From positions 37,964-101,963 of the IMG/VR virus record IMGVR_UViG_3300012016_000699: a stretch of DNA of 64,000 bases, one strand, 5' to 3'. A program made the position numbers and the translations under genes. This document shows positions 5,052 through 59,635 of this stretch, one piece after another (within the stretch, counting starts at the first letter, position 1; each line of letters begins with the position of its first letter). The DNA comes from a virus. Taxonomy: Duplodnaviria; Caudoviricetes. The notes under the pieces are model-generated. The model was not told the DNA's origin, did not search any database, and was given only the letters and a program-made list of their open reading frames with translations.

Positions 5052-5507
5052 TTACTTGAGAGTGTAGACGCTGCTCGTGCAGTCGTCTATGGTCACGCTG
5101 ACAGTCGCTGAGACGGCAGCCCTGTAAGCCGAAGAATCCTCCTCTGAGAGCGTAACCGTCTTACCTTCACCTTCCAGGCGGTGCTCCGTTCCGTCAAGGG
5201 TCAGAAGCCATTCGGCCGCATCCTCGCCGTCGATGAATCTGCCGTCAATGGTAAGTATGACGCCGCCCTCGGTATCCTCAGCCGTGATGTTGTTGTATTC
5301 AGGGTCATAGAAGAAGTTCTCGATGTCCTCTTCAGTGATCTCGCAGACCATCTCTATGACGGCATTGTTGGTAGCCTCCTTGACCTCCTCCTCGGAGTAC
5401 AGCCTCTTGCCTTCCTTCAGCTGTCTGGAAATGGCGGCCATGTCATCGAGGAGCTGGTCAACTTCCTCTACGCTTTCGCTGATACATTTCTTTTCTTCCA
5501 ATGCCAT
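5052..5507 (-). CDS. Hypothetical virion-region protein
   Basis: ORF in operon, tight spacing. Confidence 0.6.
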   Translation of the reverse strand: MALEEKKCISESVEEVDQLLDDMAAISRQLKEGKRLYSEEEVKEATNNAVIEMVCEITEEDIENFFYDPEYNNITAEDTEGGVILTIDGRFIDGEDAAEWLLTLDGTEHRLEGEGKTVTLSEEDSSAYRAAVSATVSVTIDDCTSSVYTLK

Positions 5508-5512
5508 GATAT

Positions 5513-6010
5513 CTACTGATTCCTGTATTTGTGAACAAAAATTGGATTGCCGTTTCGGTCATGGATGACCTGGCCGTTGCGGTCGAGAAGCAGCATGAGT
5601 CCGTCGTCGTTGACGCTGGTCATCCATACTCTCGTGAAGGTCACCCAGTGCTTGTGCCTGCAGTAGCCCATGGCATAGCCGGGCATCGTGCAGTAAGGCT
5701 CATAGAGGAACTGTTCGTCTGTCTCCTGCCGGTAGCCGCCAGCATAGTCTCCGTCTGGGATGCCGCAGGTGGTGGTGACGAAAGTCTTTCCGATGCGGGC
5801 GCGTACGGTGATGTAGAAGTTCCCTTCCTCGTCGACGAGGCTATCGTCCTTCGTAATGGGAAGCTTCCTGAATTCGTTGCGGAGCTGCAGCAGCCACGGA
5901 TCCGTCTTCGGGTCGAAGCCCTCAAGGCTGAAGTCCACGCGGAACTTCAGGTCCGTGTCCGGGTAGATAACGTTCATCTCCTGCTGCGTGCTTGTTTCTT
6001 GTCCTTCCAT
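5513..6010 (-). CDS. Tail-tip associated hypothetical protein (start revised to ATG 6010)
   Basis: IYPDTDLKFRV..IPDGDYAGGYRQE pattern; revised start removes the overlap. Confidence 0.6.
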   Translation of the reverse strand: MEGQETSTQQEMNVIYPDTDLKFRVDFSLEGFDPKTDPWLLQLRNEFRKLPITKDDSLVDEEGNFYITVRARIGKTFVTTTCGIPDGDYAGGYRQETDEQFLYEPYCTMPGYAMGYCRHKHWVTFTRVWMTSVNDDGLMLLLDRNGQVIHDRNGNPIFVHKYRNQ

Positions 6011-6023
6011 ACTGTTGTATTGC

Positions 6024-6785
6024 TTATATGTTGTAATCCACAATGAAATCACCGTTATCGAAGCTGAACATATCCATGGTGAGCCTGTCCCGCTCTACAT
6101 ATTCCATGATCAGCTCACCCTCCTCGTAGTTGTAGCTGAAGTCGAGACAGAGGATTCCCTTCCGTGAGGCCTCCTCTTCCTCCCACTGCTGCCAGTTGGC
6201 AAGGACGCGCGACCAGAAAGCATCCCAGTCGGGCACCACGCCATCCGTATAGAAGTCCTCCCACTGCTGCTGCGATGTGGCAACGAACCCCTCGAAACGG
6301 GTGTAGAGTGCCTCTGCGTCGTGCTGGAAGCCGTTGTTGTTCTGCCCGAGGAACCAGGCGAACATCAAGTCATGGATCTGCTGTGCCTCGGCACCCTGCT
6401 GCTCGGCAGTGTTACCCTGCTGGCTGACACGCTCGTAGAGCGTCTGGTAGCCTTCCAGTGCGTTCTCCACGCGCTCTCCCTGTGACTGGGCGTAGCCTGC
6501 GGCACGCTCTGCGCTGGAGGCGGCATTGTCGCAGCGTTCACGCACATCCTCTCCGAGACGGCTGAGGCCTTCCACGATGGAGGTAGGCGACACATTCTCG
6601 ATCCTGCGTATCCCCTGGTAGATATACGACGCCAGCAGTCCTGCGTGCCTTTCGGAGTCGAAGTTCACAATCTGGATGTCCGACGCCTCCCGCATGATCG
6701 TGGAGAAGTAGTCCAGGATATCCTGCTTGTGTCCGCGCAACCATTGCCACATGATTCCTGACATGGTGTTGTCAATCTCTGCCAT
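6024..6785 (-). CDS. Tail-region protein with coiled coil
   Basis: Ala/Gln-rich helical middle; C-terminal GELIMEY motif. Confidence 0.6.
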   Translation of the reverse strand: MAEIDNTMSGIMWQWLRGHKQDILDYFSTIMREASDIQIVNFDSERHAGLLASYIYQGIRRIENVSPTSIVEGLSRLGEDVRERCDNAASSAERAAGYAQSQGERVENALEGYQTLYERVSQQGNTAEQQGAEAQQIHDLMFAWFLGQNNNGFQHDAEALYTRFEGFVATSQQQWEDFYTDGVVPDWDAFWSRVLANWQQWEEEEASRKGILCLDFSYNYEEGELIMEYVERDRLTMDMFSFDNGDFIVDYNI

Positions 6786-6805
6786 AGCCGTTCAGGGTTT
6801 CGTTA

Positions 6806-7114
6806 TTAACTTTCAGCTACTGCCTCGTCCTCCGGCATCAGCTTCATGATGATGGAAGCCACGGTCTCAGTGATATCCTTCTTGGTGGAATTCTTCAGGC
6901 CTTCGACACGTGCGTTAAGGAAAAGGCGGCCGTCCCTGTTGTCCATCACAAAGCGTCCGAGACTATCCTCGCCCTTCTTGATAACTCCCTCGATGACGAG
7001 ACTGCCGTTCCTTACGCTCTGGCTCGACTCGATGGAAATGTTCTCACTGATCATAACAGGCGCGTAATCAACGTGCATGTTGTTGTTCTTCTCTGATAAC
7101 TGAATCTCTTTCAT
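6806..7114 (-). CDS. Hypothetical protein
   Basis: ORF in operon. Confidence 0.6.
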   Translation of the reverse strand: MKEIQLSEKNNNMHVDYAPVMISENISIESSQSVRNGSLVIEGVIKKGEDSLGRFVMDNRDGRLFLNARVEGLKNSTKKDITETVASIIMKLMPEDEAVAES

Positions 7115-7132
7115 ATCTTACTTTTTTAGGGG

Positions 7133-7435
7133 TTATACTTCTTTCAGCATCTCGTCGAGCTGCGGGTTCACGCTCAACAGGATGAAGGGAGCAAAGCCTG
7201 CGTTGATGAGATCGCGAACAGTTTTCAGTTCTTCATCCGTCAGCTCCACTTCCTCGTGGTGATAGACCTTCTGTCCCAGCTCGGAGATACGAATATCCTT
7301 CCCGCCATAGAACAGACCGTTTCCGAGTGCTTTGGCAAAGTCATAGGGCACTTTCGCCCCCGCCTTGTCTGCCACCTTATAAGGCTTGCCGTCGATGTCC
7401 TTTACGACAATCTTTGAAAAGTCAATCTTTCTCAT
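7133..7435 (-). CDS. Conserved Bacteroidota phage hypothetical protein
   Basis: MRKIDFSKI..DIDG..LGNGLF..EVELTDEE pattern commonly seen after tail-tip genes. Confidence 0.65.
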   Translation of the reverse strand: MRKIDFSKIVVKDIDGKPYKVADKAGAKVPYDFAKALGNGLFYGGKDIRISELGQKVYHHEEVELTDEELKTVRDLINAGFAPFILLSVNPQLDEMLKEV

Positions 7436-32355: not shown

Positions 32356-32418
32356 TTTGATTAAAATCTTATTTGCATAGACAAAGATACAAAGAAATTA
32401 TCAAATATGCAAGTTTTT
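32356..32418 (-). promoter_or_regulatory. Repeated promoter/leader, copy 1
   Basis: Minus strand TTGCATATTTGATAA..TATCTTTG (32382-32389)..GCAAATAAGAT. Confidence 0.85.
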
Positions 32419-32468: not shown

Positions 32469-33869
32469 TTACTTTCTCTTGGATATCTCCTGCACCTCCT
32501 CGTCGGTGGCCTCGGGGAACCCGAACACCTTGAGGGCGTCCTGGTGACGGCCGTAGCGTACCTTGTTGGGGAGCTGCATATTGAACTCATAGATAAGCGC
32601 CTCGCGGTACTGCTGCTCGGTCAGCTCACGGACCTTCGTGCAGCCGAAGCCGAAGTAGCCGGACTTCTCGTAGGTGACGAAAGGCTCCAGGCCGAACTTC
32701 GCAGGCAGCGCGTCGTACTGCTCCTTGCGCAGGAACTTCTGGAAGAACCACTGTCCCTGCAGGATATACGCCGTGAGGCCGTTGTCATCAAGGAAACGGA
32801 CGGACAGGCCGCCGTCGGTGGTGCAGCGCTTGGCATCGATCAGCTTCTCCACATTGGCCCTCATGCGGCCGGAGAAGAACACCTTGCCGCCCATCTTGCA
32901 GAACAGGTTGAGGCACGTCAGCACACTGTCCTCCGCGAACTGGCTGACCACGGAGTTGATGACGGCATCACAGATGACGTAGTCGAAACGGCCGTGCTTC
33001 TGGTAGTGGGAGAAGAACTTGTCGATCATCTGGTGTCCCTTCTCTACGGAGATACCAACGCGGTTGTGGTTGAAGAACTCCAGTCCGATGGCGTTCCTGT
33101 AGTTGTGCTGCATGCGCACCTTGTCGATGCACATCGCCTTGCCGCATCCGAAGTCAAGGATGTTGATGTCCTTCGGCTCTTCCAGCAGCCACTTCACCAC
33201 CTGGCGGTAGAGAATCGACCAGTCGATGGCGGCATGGCGGGGAGGCTGTGCAAGTCCCTGCTGGAACTCCGGGCAGTCGAGCGCGTCATAGCAGAACACG
33301 CCATAGTCCTGCTTGAAGTAGTAGTCGAAGACAGAACGCTTCTCGGCCTCCAGAACGTAGGCATGGACGGGGATATCGAGCCGCTGGCAGGCATACACGT
33401 AGTTGTTGCCGAACACAACCTCGCCGTCGCAGATGATGGCGCAGAGGGCATCCTTGTAGCGCATGATAAGGCCGCACATGTCCTTCACCAAGGTCGGCTG
33501 GCACTGGGGCAGGTCGAAGTCGGTGTTTGGAATCTCCGTGTAGAACTGTGCCGGTGCAAGGTCGCCCTTGAACCTGCCAAGCGTCTCAGGCTCATGCTCC
33601 ACGCCGTTGTGGATGAGGTTGAACAGCATCTCGTCCTGCAGCTCTACACCATGGACGTAGAAGCAGGGTACCTCCTCGATGCCTACCTTCGTAGCGGCCT
33701 TCGTGCGCTGGTGGCCGGCGATGATTGTCATGTTGTCTTTGTTGATGATGATCGGCAGGATAAAGCCGAGGGTCTTCAGGCTGCCTTGCAGCTCGACGAA
33801 GGCAGCCTCACTGAGCTTGCGGGGGTTGTACTCCGCAGGGTGGATTTCACTGATTTTTACGTACTCCAT
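32469..33869 (-). CDS. ParB/Srx-domain + SAM-dependent methyltransferase
   Basis: PAEYNPRKLS, IIAGHQRTKA, degenerate second ParB (VVFGNNY), ILDFGCGK, DAVINSV. Confidence 0.85.
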   Translation of the reverse strand: MEYVKISEIHPAEYNPRKLSEAAFVELQGSLKTLGFILPIIINKDNMTIIAGHQRTKAATKVGIEEVPCFYVHGVELQDEMLFNLIHNGVEHEPETLGRFKGDLAPAQFYTEIPNTDFDLPQCQPTLVKDMCGLIMRYKDALCAIICDGEVVFGNNYVYACQRLDIPVHAYVLEAEKRSVFDYYFKQDYGVFCYDALDCPEFQQGLAQPPRHAAIDWSILYRQVVKWLLEEPKDINILDFGCGKAMCIDKVRMQHNYRNAIGLEFFNHNRVGISVEKGHQMIDKFFSHYQKHGRFDYVICDAVINSVVSQFAEDSVLTCLNLFCKMGGKVFFSGRMRANVEKLIDAKRCTTDGGLSVRFLDDNGLTAYILQGQWFFQKFLRKEQYDALPAKFGLEPFVTYEKSGYFGFGCTKVRELTEQQYREALIYEFNMQLPNKVRYGRHQDALKVFGFPEATDEEVQEISKRK

Positions 33870-33871
33870 AG

Positions 33872-34561
33872 TTATCTAGCGTTAAGTTTGCTTACAATAT
33901 CCTTCACAAAGCCGAAGTCCACACAGGCGGTATCGACATACTCCTCGTACTTCTCGCGCAACAGGTCGTACTCCTCACGGGTGACAGGCACCGAATACTT
34001 GCCGAAGCTGAGCATGTCTATCTTCTTCACGCGGCTGCCCTTGATGGAGGTGACGACGGTGGGATCCTTATCGGGGTCGTAGAACACGCCCTCGTCCACG
34101 CCGAAGCTCACCAGCGTCACCTCGTCGAAGAGGATCTCGGCCTTGTCGTAATCGAACTCGGCGAACTCCCTGTTTCCCTTGATGATGACCTCCTTCTTCC
34201 GCTCCTCGGTAAGACCTTCGTGGCGGTCAACGATGACCACAGGGTTCTCCTTCCACTTCTCCCAATAGCCGATGACGGCTTCCTTCTCGTTCTCACTCAT
34301 GGCCTGGTAGCGGTCGTTGTCCTGCAGGACCACCTTCCATGCGAAAGGCTCCTTGGCCAGTATCTCCTCCTGCAGCACCTTCACGCGCTGGTTGCCCTCA
34401 AGGACAACGTTGTCCTCGTCGATGACGATGAGCTTCGCCTCGTTGAGCATCTTGGGAAAGAGCATGACGCTCTGCTGGAGCCTCTTCAGCCGTGCCGCCG
34501 TTATCTTACGCGGATTGATGGGGTTCTGCTTTAACTCGTTGACATTTATTTGCTGTATCAT
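33872..34561 (-). CDS. ParB/Srx N-terminal domain protein
   Basis: NPINPRKI, VLEGNQR. Confidence 0.8.
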   Translation of the reverse strand: MIQQINVNELKQNPINPRKITAARLKRLQQSVMLFPKMLNEAKLIVIDEDNVVLEGNQRVKVLQEEILAKEPFAWKVVLQDNDRYQAMSENEKEAVIGYWEKWKENPVVIVDRHEGLTEERKKEVIIKGNREFAEFDYDKAEILFDEVTLVSFGVDEGVFYDPDKDPTVVTSIKGSRVKKIDMLSFGKYSVPVTREEYDLLREKYEEYVDTACVDFGFVKDIVSKLNAR

Positions 34562-34564
34562 GGC

Positions 34565-35338
34565 TTAGTCCTCCTGTTCGTTTTCGGGTTCAACTTCCTG
34601 TTCGCTCTCTTCCTCCGCCTCGGTGTCCTCGTCCTTCTCTCCGTAGAGTATGGCCTCCTGGAGCTCCGTGTCACCCAGCAGCCATGCGAGGAATCCGTCG
34701 GTCTTGTCGCCGTGCCTGCTCTTGTACTCCTCCACCAGCTGCTCCAGACTCTCGTACTCGGCATCGGTGAGGAAGAACTCGACATAGCCGCACTTGAAGG
34801 TCTTCATGGTAATCTTATTCTTGCCGGCCTCAACGTCGTTGATCTTGTCGGCGTAGTCGTAGAGGTCCCAGCTGACACTTCCGAAGAAGTCGCAGATGAG
34901 GTCGCGGCTAAAGAACTTACGCAGCATTTCGGGATCGTCCTCTCCGGAGTGCAGGTTCTCCTTCATCAGCAACTCACGCTTCTCCTCCTCGCTGAATGTC
35001 TCTATGGTACGGCAGGGCACTTCCGGGTTGGACTGCCACTGTAGCCAGTACTGGATGAGGTTACGCTGCTGCTCCTCTGCCATTTCACGGTAGATAGTCT
35101 GCTGGACCAGCATGTCCTCTATTGTGTCTTCGTCCATTTCAAGGATAGCACGAAGGGACTTACAGCGGTGGTTGCCGCTCCAGATTACGCTCTCGTTGTC
35201 GATCTTGATGGGGTTGATGGCCATCATCCAGGGAGAGAGCAGGAGGCTCTGGGTCAGTTTCTCCTGCATGAACTCCGTGATGGTCCTCGGGTTCAGCGGG
35301 TTAATGACTAACTCCCTTACGTTTACTAACTTATCCAT
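34565..35338 (-). CDS. ParB/Srx N-terminal domain protein (paralog of 33872..34561)
   Basis: NPLNPRTI, IWSGNHR. Confidence 0.8.
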   Translation of the reverse strand: MDKLVNVRELVINPLNPRTITEFMQEKLTQSLLLSPWMMAINPIKIDNESVIWSGNHRCKSLRAILEMDEDTIEDMLVQQTIYREMAEEQQRNLIQYWLQWQSNPEVPCRTIETFSEEEKRELLMKENLHSGEDDPEMLRKFFSRDLICDFFGSVSWDLYDYADKINDVEAGKNKITMKTFKCGYVEFFLTDAEYESLEQLVEEYKSRHGDKTDGFLAWLLGDTELQEAILYGEKDEDTEAEEESEQEVEPENEQED

Positions 35339-38628: not shown

Positions 38629-38752
38629 AATGTTGTTCTGTTTAAATTGTTTGATTATCATCTTATTTGCAATACAAAGATACGAAAATGTAATCAAATA
38701 TGCAAGTTTTTACGGAATTATTTTCGTTAAACAAAGTTAATCAAATTTGCAA
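38629..38752 (-). promoter_or_regulatory. Repeated promoter/leader, copy 2
   Basis: TATCTTTG at 38675-38682; leader GCAAATAAGATGATAATCAAACAATTTAAACAGAACAACATTATG. Confidence 0.9.
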
Positions 38753-39906: not shown

Positions 39907-40028
39907 AACTGTTCTGTTTTTAAAGTTTGATTATTATCTTATTTGCAATACAAAGATACAAAAAAATAATCAAATATGCAAGCTTTTACGAAAAAACTTC
40001 CGTTAAATAGAGTTAATCAAATATGCAA
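39907..40028 (-). promoter_or_regulatory. Repeated promoter/leader, copy 3
   Basis: TATCTTTG at 39951-39958; two TTGCATATTTGATTA boxes. Confidence 0.9.
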
Positions 40029-49197: not shown

Positions 49198-49620
49198 TTA
49201 TTCCCAGCGTATCTTGTTCACCCACTCGCGTACGGTCTTCATAAAGTCCTCCAGTGAACGGCAGACGACATATTGGAAGCCGAGCTCCGTTACCTTCTGC
49301 TCGAAGATCTTCTGGTTCTGGTTCTGCTTTCCTGTCTGGGTCTTCATCTCCACGAAGAGGATTTTCCCTCTGTCTCCGCAGATGGTGAGGTCGGCAGCTC
49401 CAGGGAGGATTCCTTCACGGAGCATCCAAATCATTTCCTTCTTGTCTCTGGTACCACCGTTTGGGACGGCGAAGATGACATACCTCGGGTACTGGAGCTT
49501 GAACCACTTCACGCAGGAAATCTGGATATCGCTTTCCTGGTGACCCTGCACCTTCTTGTGCTTCGTGGCTTTCTCACGCATGAGAAGTTCGTCAAATGAC
49601 ACTGGCTTTCTCTGGCTCAT
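49198..49620 (-). CDS. VRR-NUC domain nuclease
   Basis: ESDIQ, FAVPNGG, GAADL, FVEMKT..GKQ..Q. Confidence 0.88.
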   Translation of the reverse strand: MSQRKPVSFDELLMREKATKHKKVQGHQESDIQISCVKWFKLQYPRYVIFAVPNGGTRDKKEMIWMLREGILPGAADLTICGDRGKILFVEMKTQTGKQNQNQKIFEQKVTELGFQYVVCRSLEDFMKTVREWVNKIRWE

Positions 49621-50222
49621 TTCTTCTCACTTTCTGATTCTGGCCAAATGAAGTCAGCCCAAATATCGAGGAACTGCTTGCCAGCATATTCGGCCAACTC
49701 TCTCTTGACAAAGCAGAGACGCGCGCCGTAGTTCGTGAGCGAGTACGGCGAAGCGTAATTCGTGTTCGAGTAAGCCACACACGCGTGCGCATACGCGTAG
49801 TTGTACGAACGGCCCAACACATGGCCTCTCTCATCCTTACTCATCTTGTCGATCTCCTCCTGTGTGAAGAGCTCAAACCAGGGATAGTAGCGATACTCAT
49901 CTACGGTGAACTGAGGCTCCCAACCTTCATTGAGGGCGGCACAGATGATTCGGAGTTTGAGGAAAGCCCAAATGTCCTTATCATCTTTCACATCAGTGTC
50001 TTTGACGGCATAGCCATAATTGTCAAAGGCTCTGCAATAGGGATGATTTTCCCCAAGCGCTTGATAAGCATCGTCAAATGTCTTGATGCGCTCGGTGATG
50101 TCCTTTTTTACAAATAGATCCTTGCCGAAGAGGTTCTCCAGCAATTCTTTCCCTTCGTCTGAAGCATTGTCGTGTGCTTTCAGAGCATCCTCTTGCGAGA
50201 TTTCAATTTTCTTGGTTTCCAT
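49617..50222 (-). CDS. Early protein with a DGR-variable-region-like segment
   Basis: ITERIKTFDDA, ALNEGWEP, YYPWF; GRSYNYAYAHACVAYSNTNYASPYSLTNYGARLCF. Confidence 0.75.
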   Translation of the reverse strand: METKKIEISQEDALKAHDNASDEGKELLENLFGKDLFVKKDITERIKTFDDAYQALGENHPYCRAFDNYGYAVKDTDVKDDKDIWAFLKLRIICAALNEGWEPQFTVDEYRYYPWFELFTQEEIDKMSKDERGHVLGRSYNYAYAHACVAYSNTNYASPYSLTNYGARLCFVKRELAEYAGKQFLDIWADFIWPESESEKK

Positions 50223-50795: not shown

Positions 50796-50927
50796 TTGTT
50801 CGGACTTTTTTAGAGTGATTATCATCTTATTTGCAATACAAAGATACAAAGAAATTATCAAATATGCAAGAAATTACGATATTATTTTATAATCCAATAC
50901 GTTAAAATGAGTTAATCATATTTACAA
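50796..50927 (-). promoter_or_regulatory. Repeated promoter/leader, copy 4
   Basis: TATCTTTG at 50839-50846; leader ends TCCGAACAAATG. Confidence 0.88.
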
Positions 50928-50933
50928 GCGGGT

Positions 50934-50973
50934 AAAAAGAAGGACTGCACGGCCCTTCACGGGAGGTGCAGCC
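50934..50973 (-). terminator. Terminator of the PRTRC operon
   Basis: ggctgcac..gtgcagtcc hairpin then ttcttttt on the minus strand. Confidence 0.7.
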
Positions 50974-51010
50974 ACAGCAGAAAAGTCCACTTCAACAAAG
51001 AAGTAAACCG

Positions 51011-51820
51011 TTACTTTCTTTCGGTAATCTTGATTGGATTCATCTGCATGGTTGTAAGGTTGAGGAACGCTCCCTGCACATCGAGATAACCGATGGAGAA
51101 CATCTTCCAGAGGATGGCCATGCCGGCATTGGCAATGGTCGAGTTGATAAACAGATCCTGTTTGGAGAGCGCCTCGGCCAGCGAGCAGCTGGGGCCTTGG
51201 TCTTTCTCCTTGACAGCCTTGAGGTCGAACAGCTCAGTCACATCTGGCAGCTTGGCCACACAGTCCTTGCGACCCTTCGGCTGGCCTATGCTGCGCTTTG
51301 GCGTGGTACCGAGCACTACCTGTCCCCTGTCGGCGAGGTTTCCCAAGTCGAGCCAGTAGTAAGTAGTCTGCTCGTCGAGTGAGTTTGAGGGGTGCTCGAG
51401 GCTGTCGCGTATCTCAAGCCTTGCAGCCACCGTGTCGACGCAAGATATCGTGATGTTGGCCAGCTGGCTTCCCTCCTTGTAGTACTCGCCGATGCTCTCC
51501 CACTTCGTGCCGAAGAAGAAGTTGAGCTTGGTGATGAGTGCCTCGGCCTTGTTCAGACCTATCTCCTGCTCGGAGAAGAGCTGGCGGCCGCAGTTGGCCA
51601 CTGTCACGATGTCCGCATCGAAGGCCGTTACGTGGAGGCCTGGATGTCCCAGCTTCTTCAGCGCATAGCTCATACGCCCGAGGGCAGTCAGGACCTGCGA
51701 TCCCGTTCCTCCGCAGCCGATGACGTTGACGGTCAGCTGATGGTACGGGTCAAGTATGTAGTTATGGACGTAGTGCCTCATGAAGCGCGGTGCGTCCTTT
51801 GTATCTTTCTTTTTCATCAT
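51011..51820 (-). CDS. PRTRC system ThiF/E1-like protein (start revised to ATG 51820)
   Basis: IGCGGTGS, ANCGRQLF, SCVD, WLDLGN, GQVVLG, PSCSLAEALSKQDLFIN; ATGA overlap. Confidence 0.92.
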   Translation of the reverse strand: MMKKKDTKDAPRFMRHYVHNYILDPYHQLTVNVIGCGGTGSQVLTALGRMSYALKKLGHPGLHVTAFDADIVTVANCGRQLFSEQEIGLNKAEALITKLNFFFGTKWESIGEYYKEGSQLANITISCVDTVAARLEIRDSLEHPSNSLDEQTTYYWLDLGNLADRGQVVLGTTPKRSIGQPKGRKDCVAKLPDVTELFDLKAVKEKDQGPSCSLAEALSKQDLFINSTIANAGMAILWKMFSIGYLDVQGAFLNLTTMQMNPIKITERK

Positions 51821-52539
51821 ATCGGGCTTTTCAGTAAACTGGAGAGTGTCGTCTTGCTGCGTTTCAGCACCTCGGTGGGGAACGGACACCCTTCCTTGAT
51901 ACATTTCTTGGTGATGACGGCGAGGTTGCAGTTGACGGGATTGTCGCCGTAGATGTGAGAGAACTCCGACTTCCAGAACATCTCCTCCCAGTAGGCGATC
52001 CACGCCTCGTAGGTGTCCTGTCTCGGTTTGCGTATCTTCGCCGAGCCGAGGCATACGGAGCCTTTGTTGACATTGAAGAACGGGGCCTCATAGAGGATGT
52101 TCCTCGGCTTGTGCCCCTTGAAGGCGAAGACATGCAGTGCGCCGCCGGAGGCGAAGTACACCATTCCTGGTACCCACATTTCCCCGTCTGGGATGCCTGC
52201 ATTCTTCGTGAAGTACAGTTTGCGCTTCTCTGGCGGTCGGTACCATACGAGGCGCTTGTTCGTGAGGTCGCTGGAGGCATAGAGCAGGTTCTTCGGGATG
52301 ATGCCGTGCAGGGCTGTCCTGCCTGCATCCTCCTTGGCGTACTTGCTGACGGTGGCCACCAGCTTGGAGAAGTCCTCGACGGTCAGCGGGTGCGCCGCCT
52401 CCATTTTCCCGTTTCGTATCTTACGGTGCTCCACATAGCATCCGTCGCCGTGGAGCTCGACGTCCGGCTTGTAGAATATCAGGGCGTCGGTGGGCTTGAT
52501 GTTAGCCCTCATTAGGTCTCTCAGTGTTGTCATACTCAT
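51817..52539 (-). CDS. PRTRC system protein B (prokaryotic E2 family D)
   Basis: HGIIPKNLLY, LVWY, APFFNV..GSVCLG, WEEMFWKSEFSH. Confidence 0.88.
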   Translation of the reverse strand: MSMTTLRDLMRANIKPTDALIFYKPDVELHGDGCYVEHRKIRNGKMEAAHPLTVEDFSKLVATVSKYAKEDAGRTALHGIIPKNLLYASSDLTNKRLVWYRPPEKRKLYFTKNAGIPDGEMWVPGMVYFASGGALHVFAFKGHKPRNILYEAPFFNVNKGSVCLGSAKIRKPRQDTYEAWIAYWEEMFWKSEFSHIYGDNPVNCNLAVITKKCIKEGCPFPTEVLKRSKTTLSSLLKSPI

Positions 52540-53719
52540 TAGTGTCAAACTTTTCTGCTGTCTGATAGAAATCCCTCAGCCAGTCACGGAACTTCGGTAC
52601 GTAACCGATACATGACTCGAAGTACTCCTGGCGGTCATGGAAATTCTTGTCACGTGTGATTGTCATCATGCTGCACCAGCCGAGCATCTCGTCGCAGCCG
52701 TTGTTGACTGCATCGAGGACGGACTCCCCGAAGGTGTCGTACTCGCTGTAGAAGATGAAGTTGAGCAGGCTCGTGGCCGTATAGTAGTTGTCGTCATCGT
52801 CGCTGACGCCGTCACTCTCCGGGTTCCACGTCCAGTCGTAGATGTTTATGTGATAGGCGATGTCAATTCCCTCATAGAGGACTTTCATCAGCTGCCACAC
52901 GTCGGACTTCTCCGGTACATCCCTGTACTTCTCGATGTAGTGGAGAAGATCGCTGGCCAGCACTTCGCCGTCGACCTGCAGGCTGTCTATCTCGTCGAAC
53001 AGCTGCTTGTACCTGCCTGTCCTGTAGTCCGTGATGACCTGCTTTCTGAAGAGAGCGTCCTTCTTCTCGTCCTCGTCGAGCTCGTCGAAGTTGGCATAAT
53101 CCCCGTACTCGTCGAAGAAATAGTCGGCCTGCGCCTCCAGGAAGAAGCTGTCGCCGTTCAGTCCGAGGCCGATGTTCGTCTGGCTGGAGAAGAACGACAT
53201 GAACCGCTTGAAGAGCATCGACTCCGTTTCTGGCAGTGTATCTGCAGGCCTCACGTACAGCTCGCCGATGGTGTAGTCCATGGCATCGCTGCAGGCATAG
53301 ACGGCGCAGTCCAGGATAGGCTCGTACTCGTCCTTGTGGAGCATGCAGCCGAAACCCATCGGGTCCAGCAGTGCCTCGAAGTTCTCCATGAGGTATTCGA
53401 GGCGCTTCACGCTGTCCTCACTCCTCTTGGGCCTGTAGGTTATCTTGAGGTCATGGGGAGCCAGGAAGCGGTTCATGGCCTTGCGGATCACCTTGTAGCT
53501 GCCTGCGAAGTCGATGTCATACTTGTCGAGGTGGCCGGATATGGGGATATCCTTCAGACCCTCGTTCAGAAAAGCAAAGGCGTGGCCTCCCTTGGAAGAA
53601 GGACGGGGTGATTGTTTTCTTCGCCCTCGTCCTCCATCCTGCGCAGGAAGTCCTTCCCTATCTCGCCGACGGCTCTGCACAGCGAGCAGTGGAAGTCGTT
53701 TAGTTGCTGCGGTTCGCAT
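52502..53719 (-). CDS. PRTRC protein F-like acidic helical protein
   Basis: Position between C and B; basic N-terminal extension; assigned mainly by synteny. Confidence 0.55.
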   Translation of the reverse strand: MRTAATKRLPLLAVQSRRRDREGLPAQDGGRGRRKQSPRPSSKGGHAFAFLNEGLKDIPISGHLDKYDIDFAGSYKVIRKAMNRFLAPHDLKITYRPKRSEDSVKRLEYLMENFEALLDPMGFGCMLHKDEYEPILDCAVYACSDAMDYTIGELYVRPADTLPETESMLFKRFMSFFSSQTNIGLGLNGDSFFLEAQADYFFDEYGDYANFDELDEDEKKDALFRKQVITDYRTGRYKQLFDEIDSLQVDGEVLASDLLHYIEKYRDVPEKSDVWQLMKVLYEGIDIAYHINIYDWTWNPESDGVSDDDDNYYTATSLLNFIFYSEYDTFGESVLDAVNNGCDEMLGWCSMMTITRDKNFHDRQEYFESCIGYVPKFRDWLRDFYQTAEKFDTNEYDNTERPNEG

Positions 53720-53726
53720 TTCTTCT

Positions 53727-53939
53727 TCATCCCTTTGTTCCTACTGTCGTCTTGAACTCATAGACGGCCTTGTCGCCCTCGATCTTCGGACCGTGGACGT
53801 TGCTGGTCGTCAGTTCCGGATAGGTGCCTGCATAGAACTGCATCACCTCGTCAGGGGACATGGACTTGTCTGGATCCTTGAGTGTCTTGGAGCCGTGCTT
53901 GAACACGCGCTGCAGACCTGTAACGTTTAGTGCTGCCAT
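53727..53939 (-). CDS. PRTRC system protein C (prokaryotic ubiquitin-like)
   Basis: RVFK..LKDPD..MSPDEV..FYAGTYPELT..GP..YEF..VGTKG ending in Gly. Confidence 0.92.
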   Translation of the reverse strand: MAALNVTGLQRVFKHGSKTLKDPDKSMSPDEVMQFYAGTYPELTTSNVHGPKIEGDKAVYEFKTTVGTKG

Positions 53940-53941
53940 AG

Positions 53942-54550
53942 TTATTCCTCCTCACCGTTTGAATCGTCTTCCTGTTCATCCTCGCTCTTCTCGGCAGGTG
54001 CCTTGCCCTTGCCTGGACTCAGCTTCTTGCCGTCGCTCTTGTCCTCGGTGCCTCCGAAGATGCCGCCTGCGCCGCTCTTCTCGTCAACCTCCTTCTTGAG
54101 CTTCTCACATGCGCCTTTGTCGGCACCAGGCAGGGCCTCCGCCTTGGCGATGACCGTGCGGGCATCCTTGAACTTGTTCTCATTGAGCAGTTCCTTGGCC
54201 AGTGCCAGGTGGTCGATGAACACCTGCTTCTGGTCGGATTCCTCCTTCTTCTTCTTGGTCTCCATCTCCGTCTTCTTGCGTGTCTCCTCGAGACTCTTCT
54301 CGAAAGCTCCCACCTCCTCCAGGAGGGTGAAGGCCTTCTCGACGGGAGCGAGGGCCTGCTCAAACTGCTCATCGAACTCCTGCGGGGTTCCGTTCATCAC
54401 TAACGGCTCCAGGGAGGAGACCGCCTTGTCCTTGACTCCAGACGTGTCGGGAATCATACTAAGAACGAGCTTTTCGCCGTTCTTACGGATGGTCATGTTC
54501 AGCTGCTGACCGTCCTGCATCTTCGATGCGATTAAATTAAAAAATTCCAT
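53942..54550 (-). CDS. PRTRC system protein E
   Basis: MEFFNLI..LVLSMIP..PLVMNGTPQEFDEQF. Confidence 0.88.
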   Translation of the reverse strand: MEFFNLIASKMQDGQQLNMTIRKNGEKLVLSMIPDTSGVKDKAVSSLEPLVMNGTPQEFDEQFEQALAPVEKAFTLLEEVGAFEKSLEETRKKTEMETKKKKEESDQKQVFIDHLALAKELLNENKFKDARTVIAKAEALPGADKGACEKLKKEVDEKSGAGGIFGGTEDKSDGKKLSPGKGKAPAEKSEDEQEDDSNGEEE

Positions 54551-54575
54551 AATAAATAATTATTTAAAAGGGTTA

Positions 54576-54995
54576 TTAACCTTGGTTCTTCTCAGGATTG
54601 TAGTTGATAATCATGGCTAGCTCGGTTCTGAACTTTTTCTCACCTTTGCTGAACCAGTTGATGCGGTTGACGGGAATTTCCTCCAGCCCCTTGACTTTCC
54701 AGCCACGCTTCTGAAACTCGCCCAGCATATCCATGAGGGCTGTACTCTTGTTGGTGACGGCAAACTCGGTGAAGCCGAACTTTCTGAAAGCATCGAGTGT
54801 CGGATCAATTTCATCGTCCCGCAGGTGACAGGCGATAGTCAGGTAGTCGCTTCCGCACTCCTTGGCATTCCGGTAAGCATCTGCTACAAGACCGACATAC
54901 TCGGGGTTTCCATACTCTGCCAGATACTCGTCGAGGTCTATGTCGTTTCTTTCAGCACTGGCGATAATGTCTTCGATTAACTTTACTTCTTTCAT
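54576..54995 (-). CDS. Hypothetical phage protein heading the PRTRC operon (start revised to ATG 54995)
   Basis: FRKFGFTEFAVTNKST..GWKVKGL. Confidence 0.7.
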   Translation of the reverse strand: MKEVKLIEDIIASAERNDIDLDEYLAEYGNPEYVGLVADAYRNAKECGSDYLTIACHLRDDEIDPTLDAFRKFGFTEFAVTNKSTALMDMLGEFQKRGWKVKGLEEIPVNRINWFSKGEKKFRTELAMIINYNPEKNQG

Positions 54996-55034: not shown

Positions 55035-55065
55035 AAAGTCCCCGCCCCCGAAGGGGCTGAGGGAC
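55035..55065 (-). terminator. Hairpin/weak terminator
   Basis: gtccc..gcccc-ttcg-ggggc..gggac then ttt (UUCG loop). Confidence 0.6.
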
Positions 55066-55076
55066 AACAGAACAAT

Positions 55077-55337
55077 TTAGCTTGCAATTTGTTTGCGTAG
55101 GGATTTGAGAATACCCTCGACAGTCTCTATATCAACATTAATACCGAAAAACAAGTCGCATGGGTATTCAAGATATACATCGCCACTCTCGACATTGAAA
55201 GAGACAACTTCTTCTTTTCCTCCGTTGAGAGCTACCGGCTCTGTGAGGTCTACAACTCCAAACTCGTTGGCGAGGTTGTTTTCTTTGACCAGCTTCTCGA
55301 TTTCATTCACGAGGTTTTGATAATTCTGAGTGTTCAT
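55077..55337 (-). CDS. Hypothetical protein (start revised to ATG 55337)
   Basis: First gene behind promoter copy 5; starts MNTQN like 39532..39906. Confidence 0.65.
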   Translation of the reverse strand: MNTQNYQNLVNEIEKLVKENNLANEFGVVDLTEPVALNGGKEEVVSFNVESGDVYLEYPCDLFFGINVDIETVEGILKSLRKQIAS

Positions 55338-55470
55338 AATGTTGTTCTGTTTAAATTGTTTGATTATTATCTTATTTGCACTACAAAGATACAAATAAAT
55401 AATCAAATATGCAAGTTTTTACGGGTTTAATTTTATCTTATCTGCTAAAAATAGTTAATCAAATATACAA
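55338..55470 (-). promoter_or_regulatory. Repeated promoter/leader, copy 5
   Basis: TATCTTTG at 55384-55391; leader nearly identical to copy 2. Confidence 0.9.
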
Positions 55471-57095: not shown

Positions 57096-57954
57096 TTTTT
57101 CTTGTGTTACGTAGTTCAGAAATTATCTCGTTATAGTGCGATGCAATCATAGACACTGAGAAGTTGTTGCTTATCCAGTCCTTGTTGATGGAGGTGAGGA
57201 ACTGCTGCAGGGCTGATATGAGGCTGTTGTCATCCGTCGGCAGTGGTGTCGCCCTCTTCTCACGCGAGAAACGGATCTTGTTCAGCAGTTGCGTCATCTG
57301 TCCCGCATCCTTGGCCGACCAGTAGTATTCGGCATTATACAGTCTCCTATAGACCTCCTCGAAGCAAAGACGTGCCCTTTGGTTCAACGGCGGCGGGCCG
57401 ACAGGCCCTGGCGCCAACCGTCCGTTAGGACATTCTGTTTCTTTGTTATTTTCTATATAGGGGGTATGGGGGGAATTTTCTTTTATTGTTTCTTTATCTT
57501 TCTGTTTGGCGGAAGTTTGGTGAGACTTTGGTGAGACAGTACTATTGTCATGCTCTGAACCATCTGATAATCCGTCAGTTACACCACCTTCTACTTTGGC
57601 GGAACTTTGGTGAGACTTTGGTGATGTAGTACGCTTCTTAGAGGGTACTTTGGCGTAACTTTGGTGAGTATCGTCCGTCAGACATACGTAATCTCCTGTA
57701 AATCCGACAGTTGTACCTACTCCACGTTTGGCGGAACTTTGGTGGAGAATATTCTTCTTTTTGAGCATGTCAAAAGCGGTTCTGATTGACCACTCACTTT
57801 CTCCGAGGTCATTGGCCACGGTCTTGCGGTCGAACTCCACTGTAGCCTTGCCGAGGATCCTCGCCTTGTCGACGAGGTACAGCAGGAGCTTCATGGCACA
57901 GCCTTTGTACCACCACGTCCCGTCAAGGATGGAAATGTTCAGCTCGATCTTCAT
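56971..57954 (-). CDS. Replication initiator/replisome organiser
   Basis: N-terminal wHTH, internal HQSSAK repeats (iterons), YYWSAKDAGQM..LLNKI. Confidence 0.75.
   Translation of the reverse strand: MKIELNISILDGTWWYKGCAMKLLLYLVDKARILGKATVEFDRKTVANDLGESEWSIRTAFDMLKKKNILHQSSAKRGVGTTVGFTGDYVCLTDDTHQSYAKVPSKKRTTSPKSHQSSAKVEGGVTDGLSDGSEHDNSTVSPKSHQTSAKQKDKETIKENSPHTPYIENNKETECPNGRLAPGPVGPPPLNQRARLCFEEVYRRLYNAEYYWSAKDAGQMTQLLNKIRFSREKRATPLPTDDNSLISALQQFLTSINKDWISNNFSVSMIASHYNEIISELRNTRKNGRQKSTDSATIARRAEIASNIAGYDEQWEREHGIGGGSGQ
57476..57747. repeat. Iteron array plus AT-rich tract (probable origin)
   Basis: tttggcg(g/t)aa(c/g)tttggtg at 57505, 57595, 57649 and 57727, next to a T-rich tract. Confidence 0.8.
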
Positions 57955-58406
57955 CGCAGGTAGGTGTTTATCTCTTTGATGAAGTCATCTACAGATCGGC
58001 ATACGACGTACTTCTGGCCAACGGCCTGCACTGCCTTCATCCACGCTTTCTGCGCCGGACGCTGCACACCGATGGGGGTCTTCAATTCCACGCACAGGCA
58101 ACCGTAGCCGTGTCTTGGAACAAGCAGGATAAGGTCAGCTACGCCGTTACACACGCCGTTAGCCTTCATCTGGGGCTTAGAGTAAGACACCCCGGCAGTC
58201 TCGTTAGGCACATGAAAAAGCAGCCCCTGGTTCGCCAGCTCTGGATAGAGCCTTCGGAACTCAGCGACACATACCATCTGCAGCTGCTTTTCGCTAATTG
58301 GGAGGTGCTTCAGGTCTTTGACACGCATGGTGTCACTGCTCAGCATCCTGTGTATTTCTCTTGGGCACGGTTTCCTTTCCGGCCTCTTAGGTTCTTTCTT
58401 ATCCAT
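57951..58406 (-). CDS. VRR-NUC domain nuclease (start revised to ATG 58406)
   Basis: EKQLQ, FHVPNE, GVADL, VELKT..Q..Q; TGATG overlap. Confidence 0.85.
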   Translation of the reverse strand: MDKKEPKRPERKPCPREIHRMLSSDTMRVKDLKHLPISEKQLQMVCVAEFRRLYPELANQGLLFHVPNETAGVSYSKPQMKANGVCNGVADLILLVPRHGYGCLCVELKTPIGVQRPAQKAWMKAVQAVGQKYVVCRSVDDFIKEINTYLR

Positions 58407-59635
58407 CAGAAGAAGATATTTGTTAGTTGCGTCCATATTCCGTCGATGTAACCCTTCACCTGCCATTCTCCGGCAGACGGGCAGGTCAGCCATAGGTGTT
58501 CCACATGACCAAAGCGCCGCACGTTGCCGCACAGGTCGATGAACCACGGCTCCTTACCCTGGTACGGACGGAGCAGACGGCCTACAATCTGGTAGTACAT
58601 AGCCAGCGACATCGTCGGTCTTGCCATCACGACGGTGTCGAGTGCCGGGAAGTCGAAACCTGTTGTCAGTACACCGACGTTGGCCACGACGCGGATGGTG
58701 CCTGCCTTGAACTCCTGCAGGATCCTGTCACGCTCGTTCTGGTTTGTCTCGCCGGACACATAGGCACAGTTCTGGAAACAGCCAGTCAGGCCTTCAGCCT
58801 CCGACAAGGTATGGCAGAACACGAGGACGTGCTTACGCCCTGCGTTGAGCAGCCGCCGCACGATGCTGACAAGGTATGAGTACATGCCGACATAACGGAA
58901 GCTGCGTTGTACGCTATCCACGTCATAGTCCATACCTGTCGTGTTACGCTGTAGCTTCGACCTCGCATCAAGGAACGACTGAGGTGTGACATCGTAGTAC
59001 TTCACCTCAGCGAGGTAGCCCTGCTGAAGCAAGTCCCACACCTGGCAGTAGTAAAGCAGCTCCTTGAATACCTTGGGCTTCATGCGCGTCAGGAAGCGCA
59101 AGATGGCCCCACGCTGCATTTCAGGCTCATCAAACACGTTCTTGATAACCTTTCCGTCAGGACCTTTTACCGGGACTCTGGTGGAGCCGAGGATATACGG
59201 TGTTGCGGTCAGTCCCAGCACCTTGCGCTTTGTCTTCTTGATAAAGTCCACATACTGCCCCTCCTTGGGGTTCACTCTGTGCGCCTCGTCAATGATGATG
59301 TTCCGGAAGTGGTCGAAGGAGTCGATATCGTTCATAACACTCTGGATGGTGGCAAAGGTAATCTTGCTGATGTCCTTGTGCTTCATCGAGGCAGAGTAGA
59401 TGCTGCACTCCTTTCCGTAGGAGCACATCTTTTCGTAGTTCTGTGCCAGGATCTCCTTGTTAGGCTGCAGGACGAGCGTGTCGCCATTGAGCCTGTTAGC
59501 GATATCGGCCACGACAAGGGACTTTCCGCTGCCCGTCGGCAATACCTCCAGGCCGTGCCAGTCCCCCTTCGTCTGGAAGAAGTTCACGCCTGCATCCGAG
59601 GCCTGCTGTTGATAGGGTCGAAGTGAATATGCCAT
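58406..59635 (-). CDS. Superfamily 2 DEAH helicase
   Basis: LRPYQ, PTGSGKS, DEAH, GLTATP, GFDFP, QIVGR. Confidence 0.92.
   Translation of the reverse strand: MAYSLRPYQQQASDAGVNFFQTKGDWHGLEVLPTGSGKSLVVADIANRLNGDTLVLQPNKEILAQNYEKMCSYGKECSIYSASMKHKDISKITFATIQSVMNDIDSFDHFRNIIIDEAHRVNPKEGQYVDFIKKTKRKVLGLTATPYILGSTRVPVKGPDGKVIKNVFDEPEMQRGAILRFLTRMKPKVFKELLYYCQVWDLLQQGYLAEVKYYDVTPQSFLDARSKLQRNTTGMDYDVDSVQRSFRYVGMYSYLVSIVRRLLNAGRKHVLVFCHTLSEAEGLTGCFQNCAYVSGETNQNERDRILQEFKAGTIRVVANVGVLTTGFDFPALDTVVMARPTMSLAMYYQIVGRLLRPYQGKEPWFIDLCGNVRRFGHVEHLWLTCPSAGEWQVKGYIDGIWTQLTNIFF

Follow-up and report, generated by a model that had tools for sequence, protein, structure and literature searches.

An intact cassette of the PRTRC type (ParB-Related, ThiF-Related Cassette; NCBIfam TIGR03734–03742), in the Bacteroidota form that has no JAB peptidase, was identified in the 64,000-nucleotide stretch of DNA analysed here (the window). 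It makes up the final 64 kb of the 101,963-bp IMG/VR provirus record IMGVR_UViG_3300012016_000699, for which CheckV gives a completeness of 100%. The element is a prophage of about 102 kb from a Prevotella-like (gut or rumen) host, and the cassette lies in its early/replication operon. It encodes a ubiquitin-like protein (Ubl), an E2-like protein, a ThiF-type E1 and two further proteins. A PRTRC-type Ubl conjugation cassette in a prophage early/replication operon is probably the best explanation of the observations, and the chemistry is most likely Ubl conjugation by way of thioesters on E1 and E2, to judge from the protein sequences. Coordinates are those of the window unless the record is named.

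The five genes are all on the minus strand, with gaps of 2–25 nt or overlaps at their junctions. PRTRC protein E (202 aa, 53942–54550) matches PF19556 (103.6 bits) and TIGR03741 (61.6 bits for a cut-off of 37.95). It is followed by the Ubl, PRTRC protein C (70 aa, 53727–53939), which matches Prok_Ub (PF14454, 98.2 bits) and TIGR03738 (72.5 bits, cut-off 45.95). The protein in the F position (405 aa, 52502–53719) has no family match. The E2-like PRTRC protein B (51817–52548) scores 112.5 bits with Prok-E2_D (PF14460, cut-off 25), and the E1 of the PRTRC ThiF family (269 aa, 51011–51820) scores 255.3 bits with TIGR03736 (256.3 in a genome search) for a cut-off of 144.75. The stop codon of B and the start codon of ThiF overlap as ATGA. 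None of the five proteins has a family in PHROGs v4. The original prediction of an E-C-F-B-ThiF operon thus stands for gene order, coupling and family models, but the F gene is not detectably a member of PRTRC_F: TIGR03742 matched neither the window protein nor any of 69 relatives at E ≤ 0.01. The profile search proposed at that time gave scores above the cut-offs for Prok_Ub, Prok-E2_D and TIGR03736, TIGR03738 and TIGR03741; the protein B model TIGR03737 stayed below its own.

Relatives were collected by scanning with a ThiF profile, which yielded 154 IMG/VR contigs and 312 species genomes; 80 of each were examined, making 160 loci. The nearest relative among these (L005) has a ThiF 80% identical to that of the window (tblastn). 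In comparison with L005, dN/dS is 0.12 for E, 0.018 for C, 0.061 for the F-position gene, 0.13 for B and 0.10 for ThiF. Each gene of the cassette is under purifying selection, as these values (0.02–0.13) show.

The residues expected for conjugation chemistry are those anticipated by the original prediction. The Ubl ends with G-T-K-G directly followed by the stop codon, so that the terminal glycine is exposed on the 70-aa product. G67, K69 and G70 are each at least 95% conserved, and the glycine-stop ending is found in 69 of 71 viral-locus copies; the RefSeq Ralstonia phage Dina (NC_055026), which has an annotated PRTRC cassette, is one of the two exceptions. The E2-like protein of family D retains its cysteine in the motif GSVCLG, with Cys166 as the predicted catalytic residue. 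P156, N159, C166 and G168 are present in 77 of 77 sequences, giving an invariant P-[FY]-x-N...C-x-G signature, and H198 in 73 of them, while the histidine of the HPN motif is replaced by F or M. The GxGGTG and PSCS motifs of the E1 were read as GCGGTG and GPSCSL. The GxGGxG loop, D68, D70, N76, R79, Q80, K91, D129 and C212 are invariant among relatives, and the N-terminal nucleotide-binding motifs can be aligned with their counterparts in MccB, UBA5 and ThiF.

PRTRC corresponds to operon type 6d of Iyer, Burroughs and Aravind 2006 (PMC1779556), defined by an E2 without the HPN histidine that has a conserved cysteine and a conserved histidine downstream of it, together with a stand-alone Ubl with a C-terminal glycine. 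The GTKG end of the Ubl and the conservation of C166 (77/77) and H198 (73/77) agree with this definition. The ThiF E1, Prok-E2_D, Prok_Ub and protein E of the window fit the family models, and the cassette is borne by a mobile element, as in canonical PRTRC. It differs from the canonical seven-gene PRTRC by lacking protein A, an adjacent PRTRC ParB and an F matching TIGR03742, and its Ubl is made mature, with 70 residues, a glycine-stop end and no C-terminal tail.

By the proposed mechanism, the ThiF-type E1 would adenylate the 70-aa Ubl at its free C-terminal residue, Gly70. The Ubl would then be handed on as a thioester to a cysteine, possibly first Cys212 of the E1 and then Cys166 of the E2, and would finally form an isopeptide bond with lysines of a single target protein or of a small number of them. 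Since the Ubl is translated in its mature form, no trimming peptidase would be needed, as had been proposed, and the element would encode none for removing the tag. The further proposal that conjugation is irreversible does not hold as worded, as it leaves possible host peptidases out of account.

An E1 and a Ubl could also act together without protein conjugation, the Ubl being a thiocarboxylate sulfur carrier like ThiS or MoaD, or a non-protein substrate being adenylated or modified. The E1 is a minimal ThiF/MoeB-like protein of 269 aa, and its characterised matches are only ThiF, MccB, TcdA and UBA5, in the nucleotide-binding region, as would suit such a role. However, the E1 never lacks a translationally coupled E2-fold protein, in which Asn and Cys are invariant, and the scores with the ThiF/MoeB equivalog models fall far under the cut-offs (36.7 vs 159, 25.9 vs 275 and 24.5 vs 152 bits). 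Nor does the conserved neighbourhood contain a rhodanese, desulfurase or cofactor-synthesis gene. Because of the constant E1-E2 coupling and the low equivalog scores, sulfur carriage is considered improbable.

The absence of a JAB peptidase had been noted in the window and extends to the entire 101,963-bp record, in which neither Prok-JAB (PF14464, E ≤ 1) nor PRTRC_A (TIGR03735) found a match. PF14464 is the stronger of the two tests, as it was detected in 11 of 14 control genomes and TIGR03735 in 0 of 14. The abutting of B and ThiF leaves no room for protein A, and no homologue of the protein A of phage Dina was found in the 160 loci. A JAB hidden elsewhere was also considered. In ten loci the gap between B and ThiF holds only small unrelated open reading frames (ORFs) of 45–143 aa, and the conserved residues of the F-position protein include no HxH/JAMM motif; both places were discarded.

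The lack of JAB is nevertheless no special trait of this phage, as the 160 loci, phage and integrative and conjugative element (ICE) alike, share the layout. The order E-C-X-B-ThiF was recovered in every locus not cut by a contig end, in phages and in ICEs resembling CTnDOT, with B abutting ThiF or with a small unrelated ORF in between. The survey that had been suggested for Bacteroidota phages thus gave the same operon in both kinds of element. The genome loci are nearly all from Bacteroidota (three are labelled otherwise: two metagenome-assembled contigs as Clostridium and one as Proteobacteria), and the nearest genome relatives are from Prevotella, with 63–65% identity. On the evidence of these loci, the JAB-less form with a mature Ubl is the norm in Bacteroidota.

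When measured against the canonical seven genes, the lack of protein A, of a recognisable F and of an adjacent ParB could be taken for the decay of an ICE cassette fragment that the phage picked up and that has lost its function, as the original prediction had envisaged among the outcomes that would speak against it. This is very improbable. All ORFs are intact with dN/dS of 0.02–0.13, the catalytic residues are invariant, and the five-gene layout is kept in 160 loci. Moreover, in the ThiF tree the window belongs to a clade of 55 rows supported by a Shimodaira–Hasegawa approximate likelihood-ratio test (SH-aLRT) value of 96, of which 51 are in phage context and none in ICE context, and the ICE sequences form one separate clade (support 95).

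The two contexts were defined by clustering of flanking genes and by Pfam, which gave two mutually exclusive neighbourhoods. The first is that of CTnDOT-like ICEs, with a topoisomerase, DUF3945/DUF4099 proteins, and a pair made up of a hybrid histidine kinase and a sigma-54 response regulator, which we take to be RteA/RteB-like. The second is a phage replication module with a beta clamp, an SNF2-type helicase, VRR-NUC, DnaB, DUF6633 and DnaD-like proteins, and also exonuclease genes. The window shares with about 30 loci the helicase, VRR-NUC, DnaD-like and DUF6633-like genes upstream and the clamp gene downstream. Ten related viral records were tested: most are 91–100% complete according to CheckV, one has terminal repeats, and the phrog_2 large terminase was found in five. 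The INPHARED collection yielded no cultured phage of Bacteroidota that carries it. Seven IMG/VR loci (L048, L049, L057, L059, L063, L070 and L074) have ICE-type neighbours; they are probably ICEs misfiled as viruses, since they have the topoisomerase, DUF3945 and RteA/RteB-like neighbours and no phage replication genes.

The ICE clade of ThiF is nested within groups whose earlier branches are in phage context or unassigned (support 85–90). The outgroup consisted of two proteobacterial phages, and the rooting is moderately supported. As far as this topology goes, the tree agrees with an origin of the ICE cassette in phages. The CTnDOT-like ICE cassettes, from Bacteroides, Parabacteroides and Alistipes (L104–L162), resemble that of the window in having five genes, no JAB and a B stop codon abutting the ThiF start, and their ThiF is about 51% identical to it. 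They differ in a longer protein E (about 330–360 aa), a Ubl of 73 aa, ICE neighbours and the separate ThiF clade. A wider scenario would have phages as the main, possibly original, home of the JAB-less Bacteroidota cassette, which would be expressed early, with an E3-like F-position protein directing a Ubl that the element cannot remove onto host replication or defence proteins so that the incoming element becomes established, and ICEs borrowing the cassette later to the same end; taken as a whole it is rather unlikely.

Phage-borne PRTRC was already known, so that the window cassette is not a first. Burkholderia gladioli phage BgVeeders33 and prophage AB2 carry PRTRC (PMC13366799), as does Dina. 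Like the window, these three are phage-borne and have the order E-C-F-B-...-ThiF, with a ThiF 39–42% identical to that of the window. In contrast to the window, Dina and BgVeeders33 encode protein A (JAB) between B and ThiF and a protein C of 129 aa with a C-terminal tail, and in all three F matches PRTRC_F by annotation. A tailed 129-aa Ubl found with JAB, and a mature Ubl found without it, fit the idea that JAB accompanies a Ubl in need of trimming. An inducible prophage of Phocaeicola vulgatus CL09T03C04 also carries PRTRC, together with a diversity-generating retroelement (DGR) (bioRxiv 10.64898/2026.10.01.756045). Dina and these two reports add phages to the plasmids and ICEs from which PRTRC had been said to be mainly described.

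Bacterial conjugation systems that work in defence offer a further comparison. The E1 adenylation domain, the E2 cysteine and the Ubl-type C-terminal glycine are shared with Cap2 of the cyclic-oligonucleotide-based antiphage signalling system (CBASS; PMC10097602), with Bil and with Bub (PMC11601596), and on account of these common features the same chemistry is predicted. Those systems differ in being host-encoded defences, having an E1-E2 fusion or E2s of other families as well as a peptidase, JAB or another, while the window cassette is borne by a phage. Among PADLOC models, those for E1-E2 (Cap2) match only E1 residues 27–107, the nucleotide-binding loop, with at most 23.5 bits, and no PADLOC model matches the E2 or the Ubl. 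On sequence grounds, the cassette does not belong to the CBASS Cap2 or Bil families.

The cassette is preceded by a promoter of the Bacteroidota type, TTG...TATCTTTG, with an operator-like TTGCATATTTGATTA box (55381–55414, minus strand), found by pattern search. The box-promoter pattern TTGCATATTTGAT[T/A]A...TATCTTTG has six matches on both strands of the window, compared with 0.24 expected by chance. This bears out the earlier placement of the cassette in a replication/early region under a repeated promoter. Five of the matches are on the minus strand (55381–55414, 50836–50869, 39948–39981, 38672–38705 and 32379–32412), and the copy at 50836–50869 starts the operon downstream of the cassette. 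In these copies the -33 region overlaps the operator-like TTGCATATTTGAT[T/A]A box, which suggests that many non-structural operons may be under a single repressor. A more diverged second box lies upstream of both promoters that were read; for the promoter at 55414 it is located 56 nt upstream, as TTGTATATTTGATTA (55456–55470, minus strand, from reading of the sequence). On the other side of the cassette, a terminator-like hairpin with a T-run (50939–50958, minus strand) closes the operon, and a second hairpin lies at 50984–51009 (minus strand). Given the repeated promoter upstream and the terminator-like hairpin at the end, the cassette is predicted to be regulated together with several other units through a promoter used across the phage.

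Two genes of the operon precede the cassette. The first (55077–55337, minus strand) encodes a small protein of 86 aa without family, which is conserved only in the nearest relative, L005. The second (54576–54995, minus strand) encodes a DUF7698 protein of 139 aa, starting from the ATG at 54995 (PF24753, 44 bits; phrog_21141). It is predicted to be co-transcribed but does not belong to the conserved cassette; among the 160 loci it was seen only in L005. Between them, at about 55038–55065 on the minus strand, the GC-rich hairpin GTCCCTCAGCCCC-TTCG-GGGGCGGGGAC has no clear U-tract and may be an attenuator or an RNA-stability element within the operon.

Several points weigh against Ubl conjugation from an early phage operon. 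The same hairpin could cause a partial stop of transcription ahead of the cassette. Protein B matches TIGR03737 over its full length with 99.5 bits, below the cut-off of 131.45. Its homology to the PRTRC B/Prok-E2_D family is clear at the sequence level; it is 28% identical to the protein B of phage Dina (E = 1e-12). A search of the PDB with the E2 sequence returned nothing meaningful, leaving it without a solved relative. The likeness of the E1 to solved E1s in a single-sequence PDB search is confined to the nucleotide-binding region, with E of about 0.3, and the ThiF profile had no PDB match at E ≤ 0.001. Experimental work on PRTRC or Prok-E2_D was not found in the searchable literature, and the function of PRTRC is stated to be unknown in PMC3318190, PMC13366799 and bioRxiv 10.1101/2024.12.10.627669.

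Regarding the purpose of conjugation, tagging early in infection could inactivate host defence or housekeeping proteins, as counter-defence or host takeover. The sharing of the promoter with other non-structural operons would be in keeping with this, as would the fact that the cassette occurs in two kinds of invaders, phages and ICEs. The fast divergence of the F-position protein (mean column identity 23%) is also expected in an arms race, and the E1/E2/Ubl systems of CBASS Cap2 and Bil work in phage-host conflict (PMC10097602). However, the dN/dS of 0.06 for the F-position gene against the nearest relative denotes purifying rather than diversifying selection. Past the nucleotide loop of the E1, there is no likeness to known anti-defence proteins or PADLOC families, and what constantly lies next to the cassette are genes of replication rather than anti-defence islands. 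Counter-defence is thus considered doubtful.

These constant neighbours, namely the helicase, VRR-NUC, DnaD-like, clamp and exonuclease genes in phages and the topoisomerase and DUF3945 genes in ICEs, suggest that the cassette has its effect on DNA replication or helps the element to become established in a cell it has just entered. The replication-module context slightly favours such a role over counter-defence. The Ubl could then be a regulator directed at the element itself, attached to its own proteins (E, replisome or ParB-type) and timing or stabilising replication, partition or establishment. This is held as a tentative possibility. The cassette is inside replication/recombination modules in about 30 or more phage loci and adjoins the topoisomerase and DUF3945/DUF4099 genes in ICEs. 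The canonical cassette is linked to ParB (TIGR03734), and the phage encodes a ParB of 667 aa, whereas a tyrosine integrase was not found in it. Protein E has a Lys-rich helix and a disordered tail. On the other hand, neither E nor the F-position protein has an invariant lysine, the ParB is 82 kb from the cassette, and linkage to replication genes may reflect only shared early timing.

A long PRTRC ParB had been reported as missing beside the cassette, and no ParB of PRTRC grade was found there. The distant 667-aa protein, with ParB N-terminal and helix-turn-helix domains, is encoded at 5166–7169 of the record, outside the window. It scores 127.5–129 bits with TIGR03734, for a cut-off of 278.6, through its generic N-terminal half only, and matches generic ParB models equally well. 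A second ParB-like protein of 466 aa (32469–33869, minus strand; phrog_5475) was rejected as the PRTRC ParB, being a fusion of a ParB N-terminal domain (PF02195) with a methyltransferase (PF13489).

The two proteins of the cassette outside the E1-E2-Ubl set are inferred to be a scaffold, a specificity factor or a substrate. The AlphaFold2 model of protein E (mean predicted local distance difference test score, pLDDT, 82.7) consists of a small N-terminal α/β domain, a helix of about 55 residues, a hairpin resembling tetratricopeptide repeats (TPR) and a disordered acidic tail. Structure searches returned generic TPR-like matches only, over 58 residues with Z of 8.7 or less, which are not informative, and no identity was assigned to protein E from them.

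The F-position family, fast-diverging and largely helical, is present in 133 of the 160 loci. Y232 alone is invariant, and G235, G284 and D328 are almost so. The protein has no match in Pfam, NCBIfam, PHROG or PADLOC, and hhalign against the F of phage Dina gave a probability of 0.1, so that homology is not detectable; it would be the counterpart of PRTRC F by position only. Its AlphaFold2 model (pLDDT 85.3, predicted template modelling score 0.81) has a small α/β unit and a helical bundle. Against the PDB, the best Foldseek match has E of 0.09 and the best match of a wide search with VIA has Z of 4.6. The ESM Atlas gave only viral clusters without names (at most 0.91), and a search of 5.8 billion proteins gave 25 relatives without names or Pfam domains. 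Since none of these searches was informative, any assignment of fold or enzyme was rejected, and the modelled protein is a candidate for a new fold or family.

The type 6d/PRTRC operons were the subject of a 2006 prediction of bacterial ubiquitin-like conjugation and carry annotations in thousands of genomes. In Bacteroidota the form is streamlined, with five genes, no protease and a ready-made Ubl, at least as common and as diverse in phage replication modules as in ICEs, and here it is under a promoter predicted to be regulated phage-wide. Prophages of gut Bacteroidales are thus a tractable route to a question that is 20 years old. If conjugation is shown, a mobile element and not the host would be using ubiquitin-like tagging, in a mirror image of the Bil and CBASS defences.

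As for the element, nearly every gene of the window is on the minus strand. A portal, a head maturation protease, a tape measure protein, a large terminase and several helicases are encoded on the same strand as the cassette, which identifies the element as a tailed phage and bears out the claim of a phage-encoded PRTRC. No tyrosine integrase (PF00589) was found in the whole 102-kb record, in which serine recombinases and transposases were not searched for. Maintenance in the manner of a plasmid-like prophage is conceivable for the element, as is the use of another recombinase. Two distinct VRR-NUC nuclease genes lie on either side of the cassette region, at 49198–49620 and 57951–58547 (minus strand).

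The prophage also has a DGR. Its template repeat (TR) is at 34287–34403 of the record and its first variable repeat (VR1), at the C-terminus of a giant tail protein, at 34564–34680, both outside the window. VR1 differs from TR at 15 positions, 14 of which are at adenines. A second repeat, VR2 (49712–49828), about 53 kb from the template, differs from TR at 14 of 117 positions, ten of them at TR adenines. It lies inside an early gene for a 201-aa protein without family (49617–50222, minus strand), 0.8 kb downstream of ThiF. In the P. vulgatus prophage, the DGR targets a tail protein and has a second hot spot in PRTRC protein B (bioRxiv 10.64898/2026.10.01.756045). Compared by description, both prophages have a remote DGR site near PRTRC, but that of the window is in the separate 201-aa gene and not in B. 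Targeting of the E2 by the DGR was accordingly rejected, as the template repeat matches only the tail-protein repeat and the 201-aa gene. Homologues of this gene are located near the cassette in five of the 160 loci.

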